From: a virus
IMG/VR virus record: IMGVR_UViG_3300025117_000036
Location: 32,001-96,000 of that record
Length of the DNA stretch: 64,000 bases
Reading direction: 5' to 3' (one strand)
Of the stretch, positions 7,380 to 50,893 are shown in pieces (position 1 is the first letter of the stretch; each line of letters begins with the position of its first letter). Made by a program: the position numbers and the translations under genes. Below the pieces are notes generated by a model. It searched no databases and was not told the DNA's origin. It saw only the letters and a list, made by a program, of their open reading frames with translations.

Positions 7380-8402
7380 ATGAATGCTCAAGATATTAAA
7401 AAATGGATATTCGATAATGATAAGATTTCAGAATTGTTGGAAAGCTTGGGTTGTCAACATATTAGATATCATTCTTCTGGTTATTTTACTTGCGGTAATC
7501 CACCTCCGGCAGACAATAAGCAAGCAATAACCGTATATGTTCCCAATTTAAATGTAGTAAATTACACTCGTGATTTACCTCAACCGTCTGATATATTTAC
7601 GCTGATTGAATTTTATAAAAATATAAATTTCTTTCATTCCTTAAAATATGTTTGCGAATTATTTGGTTTAGATATTTATCAAGATACCAATAAAGATTTA
7701 CCCGAATCTTTGAAAATTACTAGAATGTTAAAGAAAATGAATTCTGGTAAAACCGATGAAGATGAAGATGTATCTATAAAAATAATCGATGAAAAAGTTT
7801 TGCAATATTATAAAACTTGTGTAAATGATTTCTGGCTAAACGATAATGTATCCTATGAGATACAAAGGGAATGGGAATTAGGATATGATGAATATTCTAA
7901 TAGGATCATAATTCCTATTCGAGATGAAATAGGAAATTTATGTGGCGTAAAGGGAAGATTATTCAAAAAAGAATTAAATGAGGAAGAACAAAAAGTAAAA
8001 TATCTTTATATAGAGCCTTGTCCTAGAAATAAAATTTTATACGGCTTATACAAAACATATCCCTATATAAAAGAGCAAGGATGTGTTATAGTAAATGAAG
8101 CAGAAAAAGCGTGTCATCAGCTTTGGAGTTACGGATATAAGAATTGTGTATCTACTGGTGGAGAAAAAGTTTCTAAAACGCAAATTGATAAACTGTCTCG
8201 CTTGGCTGTACCTATCTGGTTTGCGTTTGATCAAGATGTGTCGGAAGAAAAAATTAGACATATTGCAGATCAATTTATTGACGGTATAGAAATTTGGACA
8301 ATTTTTGATAAAAATAATTTGTTAAAAGAGAAAGAAGCTCCGGCTGATCGAAAAGAAATTTTTGAAGAATTGATAAAAAATAATTTGTATAGGATAAAAT
8401 GA
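7380..8402 (+). CDS. dnaG: DNA primase (TOPRIM)
   Basis: RIIIPIRD..G..CGVKGR, KYLY, LYGL, EAEK and FDQD motifs. Confidence 0.85.
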   Translation: MNAQDIKKWIFDNDKISELLESLGCQHIRYHSSGYFTCGNPPPADNKQAITVYVPNLNVVNYTRDLPQPSDIFTLIEFYKNINFFHSLKYVCELFGLDIYQDTNKDLPESLKITRMLKKMNSGKTDEDEDVSIKIIDEKVLQYYKTCVNDFWLNDNVSYEIQREWELGYDEYSNRIIIPIRDEIGNLCGVKGRLFKKELNEEEQKVKYLYIEPCPRNKILYGLYKTYPYIKEQGCVIVNEAEKACHQLWSYGYKNCVSTGGEKVSKTQIDKLSRLAVPIWFAFDQDVSEEKIRHIADQFIDGIEIWTIFDKNNLLKEKEAPADRKEIFEELIKNNLYRIK

Positions 8403-8414
8403 AAGGATGCTTTT

Positions 8415-9080
8415 ATGGCAATAGAAACAATAGAAAACGATAACTCAAATAATAATTCAAATAATAATTTATATGATTTTACATTAGATGATGAATGGAA
8501 CGACAATGATAAATTAGTTATATCAACTGCTATTCACGATATTGCTCTTGCTCTTTCTCAGGCAACTAATTTACTTCCTCATATTATCTATAATCGTGTA
8601 TTTGGAAAACTAACATTTAAACTTAGCGGTAGCTTAAAATATTATGGATATGTTGAAGATGAAAACTTTCTTTCTTTTAAACCAAACAAAATAACAAAAT
8701 ATTTGGTAGTACACGAATTGGGACACTTGTTTTCCCTTCGCAATCCAAAACCCATTGACACATTAAGTAAAGAAGCTATATATACACCCTCTAAAAAATT
8801 TCTAACTGGTTTACATCCTTATGGATATTATTATCGTAATAATGGCAAATCTGCCCCAAGAAACGGTTATGTTTCCGATTGGTATACAGATGGCTATCAG
8901 CTTCATCCTGTAACATTGCCAGATGGAAATAACGTGGATGAAGATTGGGCCGACTTGTTTAGAAATTGGGTATATAATTCATTTGTAGAAAACGAAGCTG
9001 GAATTACTCTGTATAATTGGGTAAACGATCATATGACGTTGTGGTTGAATGAATACTTAGAATTAAAAGATGTAGAATAA
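8415..9080 (+). CDS. zincin-like metallopeptidase domain protein
   Basis: VVHELGHLF (HExxH) plus downstream EDWAD motif. Confidence 0.6.
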   Translation: MAIETIENDNSNNNSNNNLYDFTLDDEWNDNDKLVISTAIHDIALALSQATNLLPHIIYNRVFGKLTFKLSGSLKYYGYVEDENFLSFKPNKITKYLVVHELGHLFSLRNPKPIDTLSKEAIYTPSKKFLTGLHPYGYYYRNNGKSAPRNGYVSDWYTDGYQLHPVTLPDGNNVDEDWADLFRNWVYNSFVENEAGITLYNWVNDHMTLWLNEYLELKDVE

Positions 9081-9095
9081 AAGGAGAGTTTTATT

Positions 9096-9257
9096 ATGAC
9101 TACAGACTTAGAATTAATGGAAGAATTATTTAAAAAATTGAATGTTGATTATTTGGTTTTTAATGAAGAAGAATTTATTTATTTGGAAATAAATGGAAGA
9201 ATGGCATTTACATTCAAATTATCTGGCGACTTCTTCGGATATGATTTTGATTATTAA
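9096..9257 (+). CDS. small acidic hypothetical protein (53 aa, not in ORF track)
   Basis: AAGGAG RBS; MTTDLELMEELFKK...GYDFDY*; bounded by palindromic sites. Confidence 0.65.
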   Translation: MTTDLELMEELFKKLNVDYLVFNEEEFIYLEINGRMAFTFKLSGDFFGYDFDY

Positions 9258-9274
9258 TGAAAGGTAGTTTTATT

Positions 9275-9481
9275 ATGATGGACAACAAAAATTCAATTAA
9301 AATTCAATATTCTTTTGAGCCATATTTTAGATGGTATGATTTGTGGGTTGGAATTTACATTGATTATCATAAAAATATTATCCTGCCTTCTGGATGGGAA
9401 ATTTATGTTGGATTATTCCCGATGTTTGGGATGAAAATAACAAAACATGTAATTTATTTCGAAGGAAGAAAGACATTGTAA
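9275..9481 (+). CDS. hypothetical protein
   Basis: ORF track 9257..9481; start moved to the ATG after AAGG; YFRWYDLWVGIY motif. Confidence 0.6.
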   Translation: MMDNKNSIKIQYSFEPYFRWYDLWVGIYIDYHKNIILPSGWEIYVGLFPMFGMKITKHVIYFEGRKTL

Positions 9482-9497
9482 AAAGGAATTTTATTAT

Positions 9498-9809
9498 ATG
9501 AAATTTTTAGATAAAGTTAATGCATTATTTGATTATGTAACATATTATGTGTGGTCAGAAGGAGGGGATGGAGCAGGATTAGTAATATCAAATGATTATC
9601 AAAAACTTGCAAGTTTGTTTGAAAAATATAACAAAAACAATAATGGCTACTATTTATTTAAAATCGAAGATAAAAATTATATATCTTTTACCGAAAGCGA
9701 TCATTCTGAAGAGTCGGTTACGTTTACAGATATCATGCCAGATGAAAGAAACAGAATGTTTTATGAAATAATTATCAAGGTAGATAATATTTTATTGGGA
9801 TATAAATAG
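9498..9809 (+). CDS. hypothetical protein
   Basis: 103-aa ORF with AAGGA RBS. Confidence 0.65.
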   Translation: MKFLDKVNALFDYVTYYVWSEGGDGAGLVISNDYQKLASLFEKYNKNNNGYYLFKIEDKNYISFTESDHSEESVTFTDIMPDERNRMFYEIIIKVDNILLGYK

Positions 9810-9831
9810 AATATAGGAAGGAAATTTCATT

Positions 9832-10071
9832 ATGAGTACAATTATAAAAGAAGAACAACATTCTAATAAAGTAAAATATTTTATAATTAATGGCGATTCT
9901 CTAATTGGATTTGTTTATGAAAGCGATAAACATGGAAGGTCGCTTGTTTTTGAAAGAGAAAATATTAATCTGAATAAGAAAATTGAGATATGGGAAAAGC
10001 AAGGGGGCAGAGTAATAGATATCGATTTACTCGAATACTTTCAATCTATAATTTTCGGCAATGATTTTTAA
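9832..10071 (+). CDS. hypothetical protein
   Basis: 79-aa ORF with AGGAAGGA RBS. Confidence 0.6.
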   Translation: MSTIIKEEQHSNKVKYFIINGDSLIGFVYESDKHGRSLVFERENINLNKKIEIWEKQGGRVIDIDLLEYFQSIIFGNDF

Positions 10072-10147
10072 AGATCAATAAAAAACATATTTTATAATAA
10101 AAAGTACGATTTATAATATATAATACTCGAAGGATAGTAATTAAATA

Positions 10148-10753
10148 ATGGGAAAATTTATTGATTTGACCGGACAGAGGTTTGAGAGATTGACAATATT
10201 AAAGAAATCAGATAAAACAAATAAAAGAAAAGACATATATTGGGATTGTATTTGTGATTGTGGAAATAAAATAACAATAAATGGAGCAAATATTAGAAAC
10301 AATCATCAAAAATCATGTGGCTGTCTAAGAATAGAAACAATAATTAAAAATACAAAAGAAAGATGGGAAAAAACTTATACTGATGGCGGTTCATTTGTTT
10401 GCCTATATTTGCGATATAAAAATGGAGCAAAAAGAAGAAAGATCGAATTTAATTTAACAAAAGAACAATTTAAAAATTTAATAAATCAACCATGTTATTA
10501 TTGCAACTGCTTGCCCAATACAAAAACAAAGTATAATAGGAAGTATCAATATTCTAAACCTAAAGTATTATATTATAACGGAATAGATAGAGTAGATAAT
10601 AAGAATGGGTATAATATTAAAAATGTTGTTACGTGTTGTTTTACTTGTAATTATGCTAAACGTAAAATGGGAATTCAAGAGTTTCTGCTTTGGATTAAAA
10701 GAGTTTATAATCATTCAATATTAAATAATAAAAAAAGAAGAAGTGTAACATGA
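10148..10753 (+). CDS. free-standing HNH homing endonuclease
   Basis: DLTGQRF..L...W.C.CDCG N-terminus; CYYC...GIDRVDN.NGY...N.V.CC..CN.AK. Confidence 0.85.
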   Translation: MGKFIDLTGQRFERLTILKKSDKTNKRKDIYWDCICDCGNKITINGANIRNNHQKSCGCLRIETIIKNTKERWEKTYTDGGSFVCLYLRYKNGAKRRKIEFNLTKEQFKNLINQPCYYCNCLPNTKTKYNRKYQYSKPKVLYYNGIDRVDNKNGYNIKNVVTCCFTCNYAKRKMGIQEFLLWIKRVYNHSILNNKKRRSVT

Positions 10754-10968
10754 ATGGAGAACTAATAATTGAAGGAAAAATTTTAGAAGATACCTTATCG
10801 GGAAAACATTATAATATTATTTTTGATGAATGGTGGGATATAGATGATATAGATTTTTTTGTAGATAATATTGTAAAAAAAGGATATTTTAAATATTGCT
10901 ATTTGGGCATTCCTCAATTTATAATGTTGTCTAATATATCGTGTATTTATTTTAAACCAGTGACATAA
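10750..10968 (+). CDS. hypothetical protein
   Basis: 72-aa ORF, ATGA overlap with the HNH gene. Confidence 0.55.
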   Translation: MNGELIIEGKILEDTLSGKHYNIIFDEWWDIDDIDFFVDNIVKKGYFKYCYLGIPQFIMLSNISCIYFKPVT

Positions 10969-10996
10969 TAAAAAGAAAGTTTTATAAGGAGATAAA

Positions 10997-11194
10997 ATGG
11001 ACAGTGAAGAAATTGTAAATGAACTTACAAATGAAATACGTTTGGAATTTGAATATTTACGAGAAATAAGAAAAGAAGCGCAAGCCATTTATGATAAGAT
11101 TGATAATTCTGAAAATTTCAAATTTACAATGTCTCACGTTGTTGCAGTTTTTGAAGCAATTGGAAATGTAAACGATAGACGAAATATAAAATAG
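10997..11194 (+). CDS. hypothetical protein
   Basis: 65 aa, AAGGAG RBS. Confidence 0.65.
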   Translation: MDSEEIVNELTNEIRLEFEYLREIRKEAQAIYDKIDNSENFKFTMSHVVAVFEAIGNVNDRRNIK

Positions 11195-11216
11195 AACTTT
11201 TATAGGAGAAAACATT

Positions 11217-11444
11217 ATGCCAAGTACAACAATTAAATATTTTAAGAAATATCCAGATCATTTAATGGGTGCTGAAAACTTTGAGGGATTTAATTATCCA
11301 GATTATCATTGTTCATTGTTGGCTCATTGTATGGAAAGAAGGATTCCCGATGGCCCTGAAAAGTCGGCAGGTATGAGAAAGTTATTAGAAGCAAAGGATT
11401 GTTTTGAACGTGCTTATTATTCAGAAAAGGAAGAACAAAAATGA
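11217..11444 (+). CDS. small helical phage protein, possibly Acb2/Tad1-like
   Basis: GPEKSAGMRKLLEAKDCFERA motif; AGGAG RBS. Confidence 0.5.
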   Translation: MPSTTIKYFKKYPDHLMGAENFEGFNYPDYHCSLLAHCMERRIPDGPEKSAGMRKLLEAKDCFERAYYSEKEEQK

Positions 11445-11719
11445 AAAAACTTATCGAAAGACTTGTTAAAGTAAATGACATCGAAAGTATTACTTGTGAT
11501 AAGTGTGGAAAAGAATATGTGTTTGATGGTAGTTGTAAAAACATTGAGGAAATTCAAGAATTCCATTCCATTGCGTTTACAGGTGGTTATAGTTCTGTAT
11601 TTGGTGATGGGGCTTTAATAGAATGTGATTTATGTCAAAGATGTTTATACGAAATGATTAAAGGTATTTATAGAACTAAACCTTATTATGCCTGTGAGTA
11701 TGAAGGCTATATTGAATGA
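11441..11719 (+). CDS. zinc-finger hypothetical protein
   Basis: CDKCG...GGYxSVFGDG...DLCQRC. Confidence 0.7.
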   Translation: MKKLIERLVKVNDIESITCDKCGKEYVFDGSCKNIEEIQEFHSIAFTGGYSSVFGDGALIECDLCQRCLYEMIKGIYRTKPYYACEYEGYIE

Positions 11720-11741
11720 AAGAAAGGTTTTATAAATAAAA

Positions 11742-12050
11742 ATGACAGAACAATCTATTACAATTGACGATGCGATTAATTTCTTAAATGAATTAATTGC
11801 TCGCGATGAGGATGCTATGACCGGATTAGTAAATCAAAGAGTTATATGCAATGAAAACATGGCATTCCATCCCACGGTGCAAGTAGGAATAAACGAAAAT
11901 AAAGAATATATTGTGGGTATGATAGGTATATTAAATGGACTTTTTGGAATAAATACAAATAAATATGGATATCTTACATTTATTTTTAAAGAAGATGGAA
12001 AATTAAGTCATGTAAGGAAAACATTTGTGGGTGAAGGGAATAGTTTATGA
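11742..12050 (+). CDS. hypothetical protein
   Basis: 102 aa; RV.CN....HPTVQV...VG.IGILNGLFG pattern. Confidence 0.65.
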   Translation: MTEQSITIDDAINFLNELIARDEDAMTGLVNQRVICNENMAFHPTVQVGINENKEYIVGMIGILNGLFGINTNKYGYLTFIFKEDGKLSHVRKTFVGEGNSL

Positions 12051-12226
12051 TAGAAGTGTTGGCTTTATTATTTGGTTTTATTTATTTTTGTATAGCGTTA
12101 TTTTTTTTAATATTTCTATTTTACGATGATTATGAAAGCGTGTGGATCATAATGATTAAAGCTTTATTCTGGATAATTAGCATTCCAATTATAATTATAA
12201 GGGAAAGGTATTTTGATAAACGATGA
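12047..12226 (+). CDS. small membrane protein (59 aa, not in ORF track)
   Basis: MIEVLALLFGFIYFCIALFFLIFLF... with two hydrophobic stretches; ATGA overlaps on both sides. Confidence 0.55.
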   Translation: MIEVLALLFGFIYFCIALFFLIFLFYDDYESVWIIMIKALFWIISIPIIIIRERYFDKR

Positions 12227-13941
12227 ACTACAAACTAATCAATAAAGTACCAGAAGATAAAAAAAACATTTTATCAGTTGCCGAACAGATTTTATATAAT
12301 CGAGGAATTGAGAATCCTGATCTATATATGAGTTTGACAGATAAAAATTTATATCCATATAGTTTATTAGATAATATAGATGATGCAGTAAAGGTTTTAC
12401 TACGTCATATCGAAGAAGAAAACACAATCGGAATAATTAGCGATTCTGATGCTGATGGCTATTGTTCTGCCAGTATTCTATTTCAATATTTATCTGAAAT
12501 TTATGATGTAAATAAGATTCTTTATTTTATTCATACCAAAAAACAACACGGTATCAGTTACGATATTCAAATTCCTAATAATGTAAAACTACTTTTTATT
12601 CCTGATGCTGGATCAAACGATGTAGATGAAGCGAAAGTATTGAAAGAAAAAGGAATTGACATAATTTGTTTAGATCATCATGAAAAAAGCAAAGAAAATC
12701 CTTATGCTATTATTATCAATCCTAAATGGTGCGAATATCCAAATAAAGAACTTTCAGGAACAGGAGTTGTTTGGAAGTTTCTGCAAGCTATTGATGATGA
12801 ATTATGGGAAAACAGGTCAGATAAATATTTAGATATTGTTGCATTGTCCATTATTGGAGATGGGATGGACATTAGGGAATTCGAGAACAAGCGTATTATT
12901 GATAAGGGTTTATCTGATATCAAAAATAAATTTCTTAATGCTCTCATAGAAAAACAATCTTATAGCATCGGTGGCATTGTAAATATTATTAATATTCAGT
13001 TTTATATAGTCCCTTTAATTAATGGGCTAATTAGAAATTCTACATTTGAAGAAAAAGAATTAATGTTCAAAGCTTTTTGTCAAATGGATGAAGAATTTGA
13101 TTATATGAAAAGAGGAGAAACCGAACCAGTTAAAGAAAATATTTATGCAAGAGTAGCCCGATTATGCGTAAATAACAAAGCTAAACAAGATAGAATTATT
13201 AATAAATCAATTGAAGAAATTACAAAAGATATTGAAAAATATAAATGGGACGATAACAAAGTGTTATTTGTAAAATTTGATGATATTGAAAGTAGTTACG
13301 TGGGCTTAACTGCTATGAAATTAGCGTCTCTTTACTCTAAACCTTGTATCTTATTCAGAGAAACCAATTGGAAACCAGGATTTTACAATGGAAGTGGCAG
13401 AAATATTGATAATTCTCCGATTGAAAATCTAAGAGATTTTGTATTAAATACCGATCTTTTTACAATGGCTCAAGGTCACGCATCGGCATTTGGCTGTGAA
13501 TTTGAAAAAGAAAACATACGAGAAATTATTAGTGTCACTAATGAAATTCTTAAAGATATCGTCTATGAAAAAATATATCCCATCGACTTTGTTTTTAATG
13601 AAGACGAATTATCGCCAGAATTAATAAAAGAATTTGATAAATTAAAAACTTATTGGGGAACTAAAATAAATGAAAGCCTAGTACTGATTAAAAATATTCA
13701 TCTAAATACAGCCAATATTAAATTAGTAGGTAAAGAATCAGATACTTGGAAATATACTATAAACGATGAAATTGAGATTATTAAATTTAAGTGTTCTCCC
13801 GATGATGAAATTATTCGACTACATCAAAAAGATTGGGGTGGAGTAGATATTATTATAGACGCAATTGGAAAGTTAAGTATTTCCGGTTTTAATGGTATAA
13901 TGACTCCGCAATTCAATATAGTGGAATATAACATAACATAA
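12223..13941 (+). CDS. recJ: RecJ-like single-stranded DNA exonuclease (DHH family)
   Basis: DSDADG, PDAG, DHH, LSG.GV, GSGR and GH..AFG motifs. Confidence 0.9.
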   Translation: MNYKLINKVPEDKKNILSVAEQILYNRGIENPDLYMSLTDKNLYPYSLLDNIDDAVKVLLRHIEEENTIGIISDSDADGYCSASILFQYLSEIYDVNKILYFIHTKKQHGISYDIQIPNNVKLLFIPDAGSNDVDEAKVLKEKGIDIICLDHHEKSKENPYAIIINPKWCEYPNKELSGTGVVWKFLQAIDDELWENRSDKYLDIVALSIIGDGMDIREFENKRIIDKGLSDIKNKFLNALIEKQSYSIGGIVNIINIQFYIVPLINGLIRNSTFEEKELMFKAFCQMDEEFDYMKRGETEPVKENIYARVARLCVNNKAKQDRIINKSIEEITKDIEKYKWDDNKVLFVKFDDIESSYVGLTAMKLASLYSKPCILFRETNWKPGFYNGSGRNIDNSPIENLRDFVLNTDLFTMAQGHASAFGCEFEKENIREIISVTNEILKDIVYEKIYPIDFVFNEDELSPELIKEFDKLKTYWGTKINESLVLIKNIHLNTANIKLVGKESDTWKYTINDEIEIIKFKCSPDDEIIRLHQKDWGGVDIIIDAIGKLSISGFNGIMTPQFNIVEYNIT

Positions 13942-23269: not shown

Positions 23270-23547
23270 AATTCAGATTTCATATTGAAAATTGTATCGG
23301 GCCTTGGCTATCATTGGGCTTTCATATAGATTTCAAAAATCTATATGCTGATATTCACTTTCTTTGGTGGATTATTTCTTTCGGAAATTTATATTGGCTA
23401 GACAACGCTATAAATAATAGACTTGGCCCGAATCTAAGTACGGTGACAACAGAATTGACCATTCTTACAGATTGTCCTAAGTGTGGTTATGAATATGAAA
23501 TTTATCAAGATTTAAAAGATGTTTTAGAGATTGAAAGATATAAATAA
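23266..23547 (+). CDS. hypothetical protein
   Basis: 93 aa, CPKCG, ATGA overlap. Confidence 0.55.
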   Translation: MKFRFHIENCIGPWLSLGFHIDFKNLYADIHFLWWIISFGNLYWLDNAINNRLGPNLSTVTTELTILTDCPKCGYEYEIYQDLKDVLEIERYK

Positions 23548-23609
23548 AAGTAAAATTTTATGAAGATAAGAAATAAAAAAAGGTAGCAGTAAAAGGGCTT
23601 TGTTGATTT

Positions 23610-24269
23610 ATGGCAATAGTACAAACCGAAGCATATTGGAAAGAACAAGAACAAAAATTAATTGAAAAATTAAACAATATAGATTTATCATCAAATACTA
23701 CGAGAATATATTGCCTTGGTGATTGCTATACCTATGGAACAGGTATAAAATCTTGGATGAATTATCCCAATAAATTACAATATGAATTGGGAAAAAATTA
23801 CGAAGTTTATAATTTAGGGCGAACTATGATTACAATGGCTACAATTTTAGAATATAATAATTTATTTTCAAAAATTACAGAAGATAAAAATTCTATTGTA
23901 ATTTTATGGGCGGGAACAAATGATATAGCATTAAAAGATGATGTGGATATGGTATATCATTATTTTTCTAGCTATTGTAAAAAGCTAAGAGAATGTGATA
24001 TAATTACTATTGGAATAACAATGTTACCCAGGATTGTCAGAGGATTAAACATAGAGCCTCTTCGAATACTTTTCAATAGAATAATTTACGAAAATAGAAA
24101 AGAATATGCTGATTACATATTAGACGTATCTAAAATTACAGAAATTGGCATTGAACAAACACCGAAATATTATTTAATGGATGAAACCCACTTAAACGAA
24201 GAAGGTTATGAATTTATATATAATCCATTAGCAAATTTAATAAAGATAATGAATTATAAAATGTGGTAA
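23610..24269 (+). CDS. SGNH/GDSL hydrolase-fold protein
   Basis: CLGDCYTYG (Ser replaced by Cys), GTND, DETH.N.EGY. Confidence 0.7.
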   Translation: MAIVQTEAYWKEQEQKLIEKLNNIDLSSNTTRIYCLGDCYTYGTGIKSWMNYPNKLQYELGKNYEVYNLGRTMITMATILEYNNLFSKITEDKNSIVILWAGTNDIALKDDVDMVYHYFSSYCKKLRECDIITIGITMLPRIVRGLNIEPLRILFNRIIYENRKEYADYILDVSKITEIGIEQTPKYYLMDETHLNEEGYEFIYNPLANLIKIMNYKMW

Positions 24270-24299
24270 ATAAAACTTTAATTTTATGAAGGAACAAAA

Positions 24300-24605
24300 A
24301 TGAGAAAAAAGATTGGTGAAAAAACCGTTATTGAAAGCGAATATATTTACATTTGTGATAATTGCGAAAAGCCATTAGATGAAAAAAATCACATCTTTTG
24401 GGATGGCAGTTGGACAGATGGATACGATTATTTTGCTCAAGAGCGTATTGAAGTTTGTTCATTTTCTTGTCTCAGAGATCAAATAGCTGACTATCTTAAA
24501 GACGAATTTGATATGCTAATTCATGGCTATAACGATGATGATATTCATCTTACCTTTTCCGTATCTCACTTTGATGAACTTTGTAAACTTTTAAACAAAG
24601 AATAA
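24300..24605 (+). CDS. zinc-finger hypothetical protein
   Basis: CDNC...CSFSC. Confidence 0.65.
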   Translation: MRKKIGEKTVIESEYIYICDNCEKPLDEKNHIFWDGSWTDGYDYFAQERIEVCSFSCLRDQIADYLKDEFDMLIHGYNDDDIHLTFSVSHFDELCKLLNKE

Positions 24606-24639
24606 AATAAGATTTTTATGAGGATGAAAGGAAAATAAA

Positions 24640-24906
24640 ATGAAAAATTTATCTGATGTTTCAGAGATTAGAAAAAAATCCATAAGTTATATTTTATTTT
24701 TGCTGGAAAATGAATTAATTCATGCTGTTGCCCAAGGAAAAGATTCTTTCGTTTTTACTATTTCCATAGATTTTACCAGCGATGTCCAAGATACATTACT
24801 AAATGCCAATTATACTTTCAATATTCGACCAGCAATGGAAAAACTATCAGAATTCTCATATGTAAAATCTGATAAATTTGTCGAAATAGAAATTAAATTA
24901 AAATAA
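24640..24906 (+). CDS. hypothetical protein
   Basis: 88 aa, AAGGA RBS. Confidence 0.6.
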   Translation: MKNLSDVSEIRKKSISYILFLLENELIHAVAQGKDSFVFTISIDFTSDVQDTLLNANYTFNIRPAMEKLSEFSYVKSDKFVEIEIKLK

Positions 24907-24931
24907 AAAACTTCTTTTATAAGGAAAATCA

Positions 24932-25141
24932 ATGAGGAAAAGAAAAATGCTAAAAAGTGGAAATTATAGAGGCGAAAAAGTTTTATATCCTGATGGAATA
25001 GGATGCTGTATCTGGCTTGTAATTGACAAAGACGATGAAGATTTTGGATTGGCATTTGATTTTTCATTTGATGAAATAGATGATATAATGAACTTACTTC
25101 AACAAATTAAAGAAACAGAAGCAGATATTTTTGAGGAATAA
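24932..25141 (+). CDS. hypothetical acidic protein
   Basis: 69 aa, AAGGA RBS. Confidence 0.6.
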   Translation: MRKRKMLKSGNYRGEKVLYPDGIGCCIWLVIDKDDEDFGLAFDFSFDEIDDIMNLLQQIKETEADIFEE

Positions 25142-25172
25142 AAGTTTTATTTTATGATATAAAGGATAAAAA

Positions 25173-25364
25173 ATGGAAGATCATATTTTTTTCACAAATG
25201 CACCGAAATATAAAGATTATAGCTGGAATCCAAAAAAAGATATAAGTGCATATGAACTTGCAATATGTCTTCCAGTTCTTCTTTCTCATGATTATAATCT
25301 TTCTGTTTTTATTGAGAAATTACCGGAAGAAGCTAAAAGACATTTTGATGAAATTGACTCATAA
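25173..25364 (+). CDS. hypothetical protein
   Basis: 63 aa; W.PK.DI.AYELA...P.EAKRHF. Confidence 0.6.
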   Translation: MEDHIFFTNAPKYKDYSWNPKKDISAYELAICLPVLLSHDYNLSVFIEKLPEEAKRHFDEIDS

Positions 25365-25385
25365 AATGTACGTTTTATAAAAATC

Positions 25386-25646
25386 ATGCTTAGAATAACC
25401 ATTGATTTAATTCCTTTTGGCGAAGAAAAAAATAAAAAAACAATCTCCACCCTAGAAATAATTAACACTCTTGCAAAAAATCAATTTGAAGAGTATACTT
25501 ATAGTTATAAAGGATGGTGGCAAGATACCGATGATTCTATTCATAAATTTAATGGTAGAGTAGAACACGATAGACGGAATTTTATATATTATCTTTTGTA
25601 TAAAATTATAATTAAGATTATCGAGCCTTTCAAATATATTTTTTAA
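25386..25646 (+). CDS. hypothetical protein
   Basis: 86 aa; MLRITIDLIP.G pattern. Confidence 0.6.
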   Translation: MLRITIDLIPFGEEKNKKTISTLEIINTLAKNQFEEYTYSYKGWWQDTDDSIHKFNGRVEHDRRNFIYYLLYKIIIKIIEPFKYIF

Positions 25647-25666
25647 ATAGAAGGAGAAAATGAATA

Positions 25667-25912
25667 ATGTCTACAATTTTAAGTTATAAAGATTGGAAAG
25701 ACCTAGCAGAAAAGCAAGGACTAAGCAAAGAGCAAGCCCTAGATGTTCTCGCATCTTGGAAAGATGAACGTGTTAAACTCTATGCCGAAATTGAATCATA
25801 TAAAAAAGAAATTTTATCTCTTCGTGATCAATTAGATCATGAAATTATTGAAGATAATCATCCTCGCAAAGGGAAGAAAAAAGGATTAACGGACGACTAT
25901 TATAATGTGTAA
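25667..25912 (+). CDS. hypothetical coiled-coil protein
   Basis: 81 aa, AAGGAG RBS. Confidence 0.6.
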   Translation: MSTILSYKDWKDLAEKQGLSKEQALDVLASWKDERVKLYAEIESYKKEILSLRDQLDHEIIEDNHPRKGKKKGLTDDYYNV

Positions 25913-31192: not shown

Positions 31193-31738
31193 ATGGAACT
31201 AATTGCACTAGTTGATCTAGATGATGTATGTTGCGACACTGTTCCAGCATGGCTAAAACTTTATAATCGTAAATATAAACAGAAACTACGAAAGGATGAT
31301 ATTTTAGATTGGAACATTGCAAAATACACTGTTCCTGAATGTGGAGATAAAATCTACGATTTATTGAAAAGTAAATCTTTATATAAGCAAATACAGCCTC
31401 TACCAGATGCATTAGAAGGTGTAAACTTATTGAGAAATACGGGTTTTACAATTGTATATGCTACTGGTGGAAAACCAGAATATTCAGTATATAAACAAGA
31501 ATGGTTAATAAATAATGGATTCTTTCAAAAAGAGGATCATTATATACAAACCGCAAGTAAACATCTAATTCGAAGTCATTTAATTATAGATGATAACTAT
31601 GATAATATTTGTAAAAATCAAGCATTTGCTTTGCTATTTGATGCGCCGTGGAATCAGCAATATTATTTTAAAAATAGAATGATGGGATGGAATCAAATTA
31701 TAAAAGTTATAAAAGATTATAAGGATAGTATTGTATGA
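31193..31738 (+). CDS. 5'(3')-deoxyribonucleotidase (HAD, NT5C-like)
   Basis: DLDDV, K.EWL, IIDD, F.APWN; start placed at ATG 31193. Confidence 0.8.
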   Translation: MELIALVDLDDVCCDTVPAWLKLYNRKYKQKLRKDDILDWNIAKYTVPECGDKIYDLLKSKSLYKQIQPLPDALEGVNLLRNTGFTIVYATGGKPEYSVYKQEWLINNGFFQKEDHYIQTASKHLIRSHLIIDDNYDNICKNQAFALLFDAPWNQQYYFKNRMMGWNQIIKVIKDYKDSIV

Positions 31739-32268
31739 AAAAGATTGTGGTTATTGGAGGTAGTGCGAATCACGGAAAAGACACTTTTGGAAAATACTTA
31801 AAAGAACAGTTAGAACAAAGCGACAACAAAGTTTTAATCATGCATTTTGCAGATTATTTAAAATATATTTGCAAGCAATATTTTCAATGGAACGGTGAAA
31901 AAGATATTGAAGGAAGAACGTTATTACAATTTGTTGGAACTGATAAAATTCGTTCTGTTTATCCTAATTTTTGGGTAGAAAATATTGAAAATTTTATAAA
32001 TATATTTAAAAATGATTTTGATTATTTTCTTTTGTGTGATTTTAGGTTTGAAAATGAGTATTGGTATTTCAAAGATTTAAATTATCCAATAATTTCAATA
32101 AGAGTGAACCGCATAGGTTATAAAAGCAATTTAACGCCAGAACAACAATCCCATCCTAGTGAAACGGGTTTAAATGATTTTGAATTTGATTTTGTAACTT
32201 ACATCGAAGAAGGATTAGAAAACGTTGAAGGCGCAGTAGAAAGATTTATAAAAATTTATCAGTTATAA
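31735..32268 (+). CDS. deoxynucleoside monophosphate kinase
   Basis: G.ANHGKDT, FAD.LK, R.LLQ.VGTD, D.RF.NE, HPSE. Confidence 0.8.
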   Translation: MKKIVVIGGSANHGKDTFGKYLKEQLEQSDNKVLIMHFADYLKYICKQYFQWNGEKDIEGRTLLQFVGTDKIRSVYPNFWVENIENFINIFKNDFDYFLLCDFRFENEYWYFKDLNYPIISIRVNRIGYKSNLTPEQQSHPSETGLNDFEFDFVTYIEEGLENVEGAVERFIKIYQL

Positions 32269-49849: not shown

Positions 49850-49879
49850 TAAAAACCTCCCTTCTTATAAAATTTATTT

Positions 49880-50893
49880 TTATAAATTAAACATGGTATC
49901 AATAACTTCTTCGGTATGATCCTTAGAGTAATCTAGAGTTGTCTTAGGGTCTGAGTGATGTAAAAATATTTGAACTTGCTCTAATGGAAATTTTTTAGGA
50001 AGACCAGTATTTTTATCTATAATTCTGGTATCTGCACCTTGCAACATACATTCCGTTCGACTATGCCTATAAGAATGGGGAAAAATATTTATTTCTTTTC
50101 CTTCCAATTCGGTTATAACTTTACGAATTTTCATAGTCCATTCATATAGAATCTCATATGATGCTTCTCGCTTATTTTCACCCTTTCCTACAACCCATAA
50201 ACAGTCTATATTATCTTCACCTCTTTCATCTAACCATTGTCTAATCAATTCTTTTGTATCATCTAAATATACTAAAGAAAATACCTTTCCTCGTTTTCCT
50301 ATTACCGAATTAGTTTTATTTCCATTTAATAAATTATATTTTTTTATTTGAGCAACTTCGTTTCGTCTTGCCCCACTATCAAACATAATCATATGAAGTA
50401 CGGCAAGCTGTATTTCTCCCATTTCAATTAGCTTTTGCCGCACTCGCATAATCTGATCAAAAGTCATAAAAAAATCATTCTCGTCTGTTCTTACTCTTTC
50501 TTTAGGCAAACCTTTTACTTTCTTTGCGACATTGGTTAAATACTCATATTCATCACTGTCTTCAATATAAGTTAACATAGACCGACACGCACTCATTATG
50601 CGATTTGTTCTAGCATTAGACATTTGACAGTCATCACTTAACCAGAGACTCAATTTTCTAAAATCTTTTTTAGATAAATTTAAAAAGAATTGATTATCGC
50701 AAAATCTTTTTACAAACAATGCAATAATCCTAAGATCGTTTGCATACTGCATTAATGTAGTTTTCTTTATTTTTCTCTGACGATACTCTTGAAGAAAATC
50801 GTCAATTATTTCTAAATTTTCTACATTAACCAATTTATATTCTTCTTCGTTATAAATTCTATTATAAATTTGTTTTTTTTTCATTTTTTCCAT
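49880..50893 (-). CDS. tyrosine recombinase (XerC/D-like)
   Basis: Catalytic residues intact: SGARRNE, GKRGK, HSYRH, LHH.D..TT..Y. Confidence 0.9.
   Translation of the reverse strand: MEKMKKKQIYNRIYNEEEYKLVNVENLEIIDDFLQEYRQRKIKKTTLMQYANDLRIIALFVKRFCDNQFFLNLSKKDFRKLSLWLSDDCQMSNARTNRIMSACRSMLTYIEDSDEYEYLTNVAKKVKGLPKERVRTDENDFFMTFDQIMRVRQKLIEMGEIQLAVLHMIMFDSGARRNEVAQIKKYNLLNGNKTNSVIGKRGKVFSLVYLDDTKELIRQWLDERGEDNIDCLWVVGKGENKREASYEILYEWTMKIRKVITELEGKEINIFPHSYRHSRTECMLQGADTRIIDKNTGLPKKFPLEQVQIFLHHSDPKTTLDYSKDHTEEVIDTMFNL

Follow-up and report, generated by a model that had tools for sequence, protein, structure and literature searches.

It has long been asked how gene-precise joints arise in the mosaic genomes of phages, and the usual answers are random illegitimate recombination plus selection, or homologous exchange at shared linkers. 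The locus described here bears on this question. It lies in a 64,000-nucleotide stretch of viral DNA (the window), which comprises bases 32001–96000 of the 121,859-bp IMG/VR record IMGVR_UViG_3300025117_000036 (the whole record is called G000 below), and it consists of 13 small genes, one of them HNH endonuclease-like, placed between a DnaG-type primase gene and a RecJ-like exonuclease gene. In this tract, termed array A, an 18-bp palindrome of the form ATRAAA-N6-TTTYAT recurs at gene junctions, each time with the same 6-bp inverted arms around another 6-bp centre (core). What is this palindrome for? We put the probability that the sites are addressed site-specific recombination sites, i.e. 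crossover sites, at roughly 0.5.

The setting of array A points to a phage of a well-known family. The primase and RecJ genes adjoin each other in Geobacillus virus E3 (GP98/GP97), and yorJ and yorK of SPbeta are likewise adjacent with a 1-base overlap, which bears out an earlier note on this DNA that had named the SPbeta neighbourhood and taken about 3.8 kb to be inserted. Since the RecJ-like protein is, moreover, 36–40% identical to the E3 and SPbeta proteins, the genome belongs to an SPbeta-like phage, and the 3.8 kb of array A is an accessory insert relative to E3 and SPbeta. A DNA search of a phage collection with bases 7380–13941 returned three short weak matches only; the close relatives of the window came from IMG/VR, among them L005 and L006, whose RecJ is 95% identical.

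A genome-wide scan, as the earlier note had proposed, places the motif far above chance. The window holds 37 strand matches when 0.62 are expected (100 shuffles, maximum 4), and a count of ATAAAA-Nk-TTTTAT over the whole genome gives 32 for k = 6 and 0–3 for each of the spacings N0–N5 and N7–N20, with about 0.75 expected per spacing and a single match of the reversed-pattern control. Across 15 related phage records (1.23 Mb, near-duplicates G034, G039p, L005 and L006 being left out) there are 380 strict sites as compared to 7.5 at control spacings. Whole records carry 56 (G001), 53 (G002), 48 (G003), 41 (G005), 17 (Geobacillus virus E3), 14 (phi3Ts) and 13 (SPbeta) sites, with reversed-pattern controls of 0–2 in each of them. 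The flanks of the arms are unconserved except for a weak A at position 0, and within the core only positions 7 and 12 show a weak T and A, respectively. Two of the SPbeta palindromes are annotated as stem_loop features (NC_001884, 2622–2651 and 116406–116431).

A two-site pattern search of IMG/VR yielded 66 stretches, many of them site-dense. We also scanned a collection of genome contigs for the motif, inspecting the six densest loci and counting the remainder. Two of the six, L184 and L167, are true arrays. The former, a 130.8-kb contig of a Microgenomates-group metagenome-assembled genome (MAG), holds 14 palindromes within an 8-kb run of small open reading frames (ORFs) on the minus strand and would seem to be a contig from an SPbeta-type phage that ended up in the bin of a candidate phyla radiation genome. 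The other four (L199, L193, L147 and L195; Methanolapillus, Flavobacterium, a gammaproteobacterial MAG and Psychromonas) were rejected as phage-type arrays; they are tandem repeats whose unit happens to hold the motif and are unrelated to the phage sites.

The placement of the sites relative to the genes is equally regular. The upstream stop codon occupies site positions 2–4 in 138 of 377 strict sites of the 15 records and ends 1–3 nt earlier in a further 63, and 14 of the 44 relaxed sites of this genome hold a stop codon within the left arm (A-TAA-AA or A-TGA-AA), an arrangement that had already been noticed in array A. A Shine-Dalgarno-like sequence starts at positions 19–22 in 149 of the 377 sites and inside the core in 27, while none lies within 25 nt in 116. 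The gap from the stop codon to the ribosome-binding site is typically filled entirely by the palindrome. Such a fixed position, together with arms that are able to pair, could also be expected of an element acting at the RNA level, either as a processing hairpin or by coupling translation across the gap from the stop codon to the following ribosome-binding site. We regard this as barely credible, since the arms show no covariation and variants oriented to the local gene strand do not favour G.U (42) over A.C (64) combinations. Six of six sites folded with RNA parameters reach minimum free energies of only −0.5 to −2.3 kcal/mol, Rfam gave no match at an expectation value (E) ≤ 1, and some sites lie within ORFs or in divergent promoter regions. 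The substitutions themselves are mirror-symmetric: A>G at position 3 and T>C at position 16 were each counted 53 times, and the double G-C variant occurs 9 times as compared to about 7.8 expected under half-site independence (arithmetic from the 53/53 counts). Because half-sites vary symmetrically and independently, G.U is not preferred, folds are weak and Rfam is empty, the data favour a double-stranded DNA site that would be read by a two-fold symmetric dimer.

If a dimer binds the arms, the centres tell what kind of protein it may be. Identical core pairs within a genome, counted in either orientation, are absent among the 380 strict sites (6.0 in shuffles, of which 8 of 5000 reach zero) and also among 631 sites with up to one mismatch (15.4 in shuffles, 0 of 5000 reaching zero). 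Palindromic cores are missing as well, with 8.6 expected for the 380 and 14.0 for the 631 sites; general avoidance of palindromic hexamers amounts to a factor of only about 0.75 (0.77 across these genomes; 46 as compared to 61.9 in non-site AAA-N6-TTT contexts). The earlier note had seen the geometry of a tyrosine-recombinase site in the first examples, and this holds up: the sites combine inverted arms around an overlap in the 6–8-bp range, at a strict N6 spacing and with independent half-sites, with asymmetric centres that are never repeated within a genome. Unique and asymmetric centres are needed in a recombinase overlap region, but not in the spacer of a regulator's site.

Comparison with close relatives shows what happens at the sites. 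Relative to L005/L006 (pair 1), the ORFs 9096–9257 and 9498–9809 of the window are missing and 915 bp are inserted after the primase gene, in L005 at the junction of site 8399; L005 retains a single site (9077) where ORF 9096–9257 is lost. At site 11716 homology begins in the left arm, which reads ATGAAA in the window and ATAAAA in L005. Among contigs from individual sequencing runs, those of X10 repeat the joints of this pair (9086>9266 and 9484>11186) and have a further one, 11735>12224, while divergence is seen at 10987 (variant contigs of X7, X9 and X12) or before 10966 (one X10 contig), several of these joints having sides of 21–26 nt that may match a similar site elsewhere. In the pairs G034/G032 (92% identity) and G039p/G017 (96.5%), homology stops where the left arm of the site begins, or immediately past its right arm or the Shine-Dalgarno sequence. 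Sites persist as islands of 18–30 nt between unrelated ORFs, and six such syntenic islands in G032/G034 have an identical core and unrelated flanks. Over the three metagenomic pairs, breaks fall at 23 of 40 site junctions and 52 of 159 site-less junctions (odds ratio 2.8, p = 0.006, an optimistic value because both directions are counted).

The fourth pair consists of named genomes. For SPbeta and phi3Ts we defined a boundary as a sharp transition between ≥99% and ≤90% identity and used sites with up to one mismatch. Six of 19 transitions lie 0–6 nt from a site, although only 1.07% of the genome is that close, and boundaries occur at 6 of 30 site junctions as compared to 4 of 177 site-less ones (odds ratio 10.8, p = 8e-4, with crude ORF calls). 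A 3.2-kb block of 99.97% identity (83687–86899) has a site at both ends, and SPbeta 116414 and phi3Ts 107396 have the 18-mer in common within unrelated flanks. In three phage lineages, mosaic boundaries between close relatives are thus located at the edges of sites, and the coincidence of ORF gain, loss and replacement with the sites, which the earlier note had proposed to test, is found in the window/L005, G034/G032, G039p/G017 and SPbeta/phi3Ts comparisons. The exchange points do not scramble the 6-bp cores: most events leave the core undamaged next to one of the flanks, and arm variants follow the replaced flank. This is seen for position 3 (G000 43716/L005 6587; G017 25712/G039p 14904), position 1 (SPbeta 131161) and positions 16 and 18 (SPbeta 86885), and it implies that the exchange falls inside the 18 bp and keeps the core.

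These features can be combined into a simple scheme, in which the 18-bp element would be a double-stranded DNA site for a two-fold symmetric protein and serve as an addressed crossover point. Every junction would carry the common inverted arms around a centre of its own. Since each centre is unique and asymmetric, the only productive partner of a site would be the corresponding junction in a co-resident relative, for instance when a prophage meets an infecting phage. Exchange within the site would leave the upstream ORF its stop codon in the left arm and the downstream ORF its ribosome-binding site just past the right arm, so that whole ORFs or blocks between sites could be swapped undamaged. 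Recombinase action at the sites and the requirement for identical cores are both what we infer from the compared sequences.

A candidate for the protein is encoded in the window, where a tyrosine recombinase gene is found at 49880..50893. Its translation displays the Arg, Lys, HxxR, His and Tyr motifs, iterated BLAST groups it with SPbeta YomM, and 10 of 13 related records contain a homologue. Another gene, which is YopP-like, is found at G000 31207–32100. That a YomM- or YopP-type tyrosine recombinase reads the sites is put forward as a hypothesis only. An N5 variant of the palindrome, ATAAAATTTATTTTTAT, at window 49867–49883 overlaps the stop-codon end of the YomM-type gene.

Several observations weigh against crossover sites of this kind. 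Arms of 6 bp are short for a tyrosine recombinase, no homologue of the candidate enzyme was detected at E ≤ 0.001 in E3 (17 sites) or G008 (11 sites), and G015 has a homologue yet only 3 sites. A comparison with the distant relative G004 gives no sign of core conservation, as 3 cores are shared and about 2.5 would be by chance. Of the junctions that break in the metagenomic pairs, the majority (52 of 75) have no site, 13 of the 19 SPbeta/phi3Ts boundaries lie away from sites, and the junction statistics are confounded, as sites concentrate in accessory tracts that are variable anyway. Seven simple ORF indels in G034/G032 sit at site-less junctions, their insert ends sharing 3–22 nt, in four of them 18–22 nt over the stretch from the Shine-Dalgarno sequence to the ATG; ORF indels thus do not require the palindrome. 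Finally, the 9086>9266 deletion joins sites of unlike core and spacer length through an 11-nt overlap.

The last two observations would suit a passive linker, where general or phage-encoded annealing recombination acts at any short junction homology, selection retains gene-precise products and the palindrome has another primary role or none. Experimental hybrids of SPbeta and phi3Ts, which recombined over long stretches of homology, agree with this insofar as 15 of their 16 recombination sites are, according to the available part of the report, in homologous regions, the remaining non-homologous one being located 'following yosA' (10.1101/2020.05.06.055103), which is where the SPbeta 116414 island lies. 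In Hyb1–3 all crossover intervals but one are parent-identical blocks of 1.4–18 kb, so that the crossovers cannot be placed within them, and the sole narrow interval (40 nt, in Hyb3) contains no site. In Hyb1phi3Ts-SPbeta (MT366946), two long high-scoring segment pairs against phi3Ts overlap by 137 nt (phi3Ts 106768–106904) around 109481–109504, which suggests a short duplication in the hybrid. A passive linker nevertheless seems improbable to us: 6-nt arms offer no better microhomology than other AT-rich hexamers, yet in SPbeta/phi3Ts, breaks are about 11-fold more frequent at site junctions than at site-less ones. Moreover, general recombination is not efficient over as few as 18 identical bases, so that no selection against repeated or symmetric cores would be expected, and still no such core is seen.

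Such a linker would resemble the PeSL cassettes of T4-type phages, described in the accessible text as sigma70-type promoters with terminator stem-loops that recombine by homology (PMC2839356). As far as that text goes, both are repeated junction motifs of hyperplastic regions rich in small ORFans that take part in indels and replacements between close relatives, and the palindromes do lie where indels and replacements begin or end in variable tracts of small ORFs. They differ from PeSLs as described there in having only 12 conserved bases, unique centres and no promoter or terminator signature; in array A no terminator-like site was predicted, promoter-like matches (31) stayed under the average of 40.9 in shuffles, and the flanks of the sites are not conserved.

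The same scarcity of signals could be turned into an argument for regulation, as internal control points would make sense where internal terminators are not predicted and promoter-like matches are few. The palindromes would then form an operator or roadblock array, bound by a symmetric phage or host regulator within polycistronic accessory operons for silencing or timing, and boundaries would coincide with them only since the site fills the intergenic gap and adds a little shared sequence. Dimeric regulators typically bind two-fold symmetric half-sites that vary independently around a free spacer, several SPbeta sites adjoin stem-loops annotated where transcription units end, and the recombinase-fold protein MrpR of the same phage family is, in the part of the paper at hand, solely a repressor at a repeated element (PMC10516654). 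We consider an operator array, the alternative named in the earlier note, less likely all the same, though it may be a second function of the sites. It gives no reason for spacers that are never repeated and never palindromic, nor does it explain why homology ends at the arm edges in many independent events with variants following the replaced flank, and the repressor element already known from SPbeta differs from the palindrome in sequence.

To compare the two elements, we derived SPBRE from the 10 promoter regions that the accessible text of the MrpR (YopR) study names as bound in chromatin affinity purification sequencing (ChAP-seq) (PMC10516654). An element containing AAAAATATGTATA, with at most one mismatch, is found upstream of all 10 genes, and since it differs from the palindrome, the latter was rejected as the MrpR operator. 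Both are repeated palindromic elements of SPbeta-like phages, and SPBRE is read by a protein of tyrosine-recombinase fold; at the promoters named in that text SPBRE sits in the promoter, whereas the palindrome sits between stop codon and Shine-Dalgarno sequence. Only one of the 13 SPbeta palindromes, before yorE, is near an SPBRE, and this genome has no comparable set of SPBRE matches. A role as promoter or terminator of the YonO RNA polymerase was likewise rejected, as the sites are mostly in early and accessory tracts and the YonO paper, in its accessible part, describes a single start site that serves the entire late operon (PMC5467207). A homologue of this single-subunit polymerase is encoded outside the window (G000 111261–114125, 26% identity over 528 amino acids), and others in G001, G002, G003 and G005.

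The earlier note had read array A as integron-like, with promoterless cassettes of an ORF plus its site being excised as circles and inserted at other sites. Single small ORFs between successive sites, and individual ORFs that are present or absent at sites between relatives, do resemble integron cassettes, in which small promoterless ORFs are parted by recombination-type palindromes. The sites do not, however, travel with the ORFs. Site-flanked ORFs make up 546 of 1513 small ORFs, and 41 of these 546 have a homologue in another genome, as compared to 130 of the 967 unflanked ones; among 82 cross-genome homologue pairs with a site-flanked member, a site is present at both members in 7 and at one only in 75. 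Together with the islands that remain while the ORFs on either side change, this means that sites belong to loci, not to ORFs. Among the 10 ORFs scanned from primase to RecJ (PHROG, Pfam) there is no integrase, the nearest tyrosine recombinase being about 38 kb off, and neither attI nor a cassette promoter adjoins the array. An attC is an imperfect palindrome of 57–141 bp that folds as a single strand; the present sites have 18 bp, the low folding energies given above and no conservation beyond. Integron-like capture is thus a very remote prospect, and the sites are not even required for ORF indels, as the seven site-less ones demonstrate.

Better known relatives of crossover sites are tyrosine-recombinase core sites with heterospecific spacers, namely dif and the lox and FRT variants used for cassette exchange. 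They share with the palindromes inverted arms and an asymmetric 6-bp centre that differs from site to site, so that only like sites would pair, and a tyrosine recombinase gene with catalytic motifs is present in the phage genome. Their arms measure 11–13 bp, whereas those of the palindrome measure 6–7 bp, and the latter occurs in dozens of copies per genome at gene junctions. A literature search revealed no description of natural cassette exchange of the lox/FRT kind. A dif-like site consists of XerC/XerD arms in an 11-6-11 arrangement, and a Xer site is not what we find, given that information content falls to background beyond the 6-nt arms. The pdif modules of Acinetobacter plasmids, in which dif-like sites of the host Xer system flank adaptive genes (PMC6449649), are similar, as far as the consulted portion describes them, in having multiple recombinase-type sites in accessory regions and exchangeable modules, and dissimilar in that the carrier here is a phage, modules are mostly single small ORFs and conservation is limited to the 6-nt arms.

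The features of array A and the candidate recombinase gene are collected in Table 1. The six exact sites named in the earlier note (8399, 9077, 10078, 10968, 11186 and 11716) are all present. Among the variants, the N5 site at 9257 and the degenerate ones at 9813 and 10097 stand, while the one placed at 9478 is better set at 9477, as an N5 variant with one arm mismatch. The observation that junctions of the upstream replication genes lack the motif also holds, as there is none at junctions between 4011 and 8399 and the sole site there (5222) is intra-ORF. Four junctions of array A are 4-nt ATGA overlaps without a site. The only long intergenic gap, 10072–10147 (76 nt), contains two palindromes and several TATAAT-like stretches and lies upstream of the HNH endonuclease-like ORF. 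In a second cluster, array B (window 23544–25817 and 27967), 8 exact palindromes with distinct cores mark successive small-ORF junctions.

Table 1. Genes and palindromic sites of array A, and the candidate recombinase gene (window coordinates; aa, amino acids)
Position	Strand	Feature	Remarks
7380..8402	+	DNA primase, 340 aa, left anchor	PHROG 47, E 4.5e-27; Pfam DNAG_N, E 1e-5
8399..8416		site ATGAAA-GGATGC-TTTTAT	primase TGA stop in left arm; next ATG overlaps right arm
8415..9080	+	ORF, 221 aa	without family match (PHROG, Pfam)
9077..9094		site ATAAAA-GGAGAG-TTTTAT	stop TAA in left arm; Shine-Dalgarno sequence in core
9096..9257	+	ORF, 53 aa	missing from L005 and from a run X10 contig
9257..9273		N5 variant ATGAAA-GGTAG-TTTTAT	
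9275..9481	+	small ORF	mechanical call starts at 9257; start at 9275/9278, after Shine-Dalgarno sequence, probably likelier
9477..9493		degenerate N5 variant GTAAAA-AGGAA-TTTTAT	one arm mismatch; left end of 9485–9831 indel relative to L005
9498..9809	+	ORF, 103 aa	missing from L005
9813..9830		degenerate site ATAGGA-N6-TTTCAT	3 mismatches
9832..10071	+	ORF, 79 aa	74% DNA identity to L005
10078..10114		two neighbouring sites	10078 exact, core AACATA; 10097 ATAAAA-AGTACG-ATTTAT, one mismatch
10148..10753	+	HNH endonuclease-like ORF, 201 aa	PHROG 374 HNH endonuclease, E 6e-18
10750..10968	+	ORF, 72 aa	ATGA overlap with preceding gene, without site
10968..10985		site ATAAAA-AGAAAG-TTTTAT	
10997..11194	+	ORF, 65 aa	
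11186..11203		site ATAAAA-TAGAAC-TTTTAT	29-nt identity island with L005, flanks unrelated
11217..11719	+	two overlapping small ORFs, 75 and 92 aa	PHROG 5120/1761 and 5435, function unknown
11716..11733		site ATGAAA-GAAAGG-TTTTAT	L005: ATAAAA, same core, unrelated upstream flank
11742..12226	+	two small ORFs, 102 and 59 aa	
12223..13941	+	RecJ-like exonuclease, right anchor	PHROG 2484, E 9e-150; Pfam DHH, RecJ_OB
12257..12274		exact site within recJ	
49880..50893	-	YomM-family tyrosine recombinase, 337 aa, candidate site reader	Pfam Phage_integrase, E 3.9e-8

A search of the literature on SPbeta-like phages and on the motif found no published description of the palindrome, and it is unmentioned in the available portion of an SPbeta review. 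In our analysis, joints throughout a deeply diverged phage family are marked by a short palindrome whose spacing is strict and whose centres are unique and asymmetric. We tentatively propose that SPbeta-type phages may run a natural recombinase-mediated cassette exchange through a YomM- or YopP-type enzyme, that is, a programmed and gene-precise swapping of accessory genes. Since the family includes SPbeta and phi3T, for which full genetics is available in Bacillus subtilis, the existence of dedicated crossover sites is directly testable. If true, the palindromes would constitute a natural set of orthogonal recombination sites and would explain the turnover of the small accessory genes of SPbeta-type phages, many of which likely act on host or defence systems.

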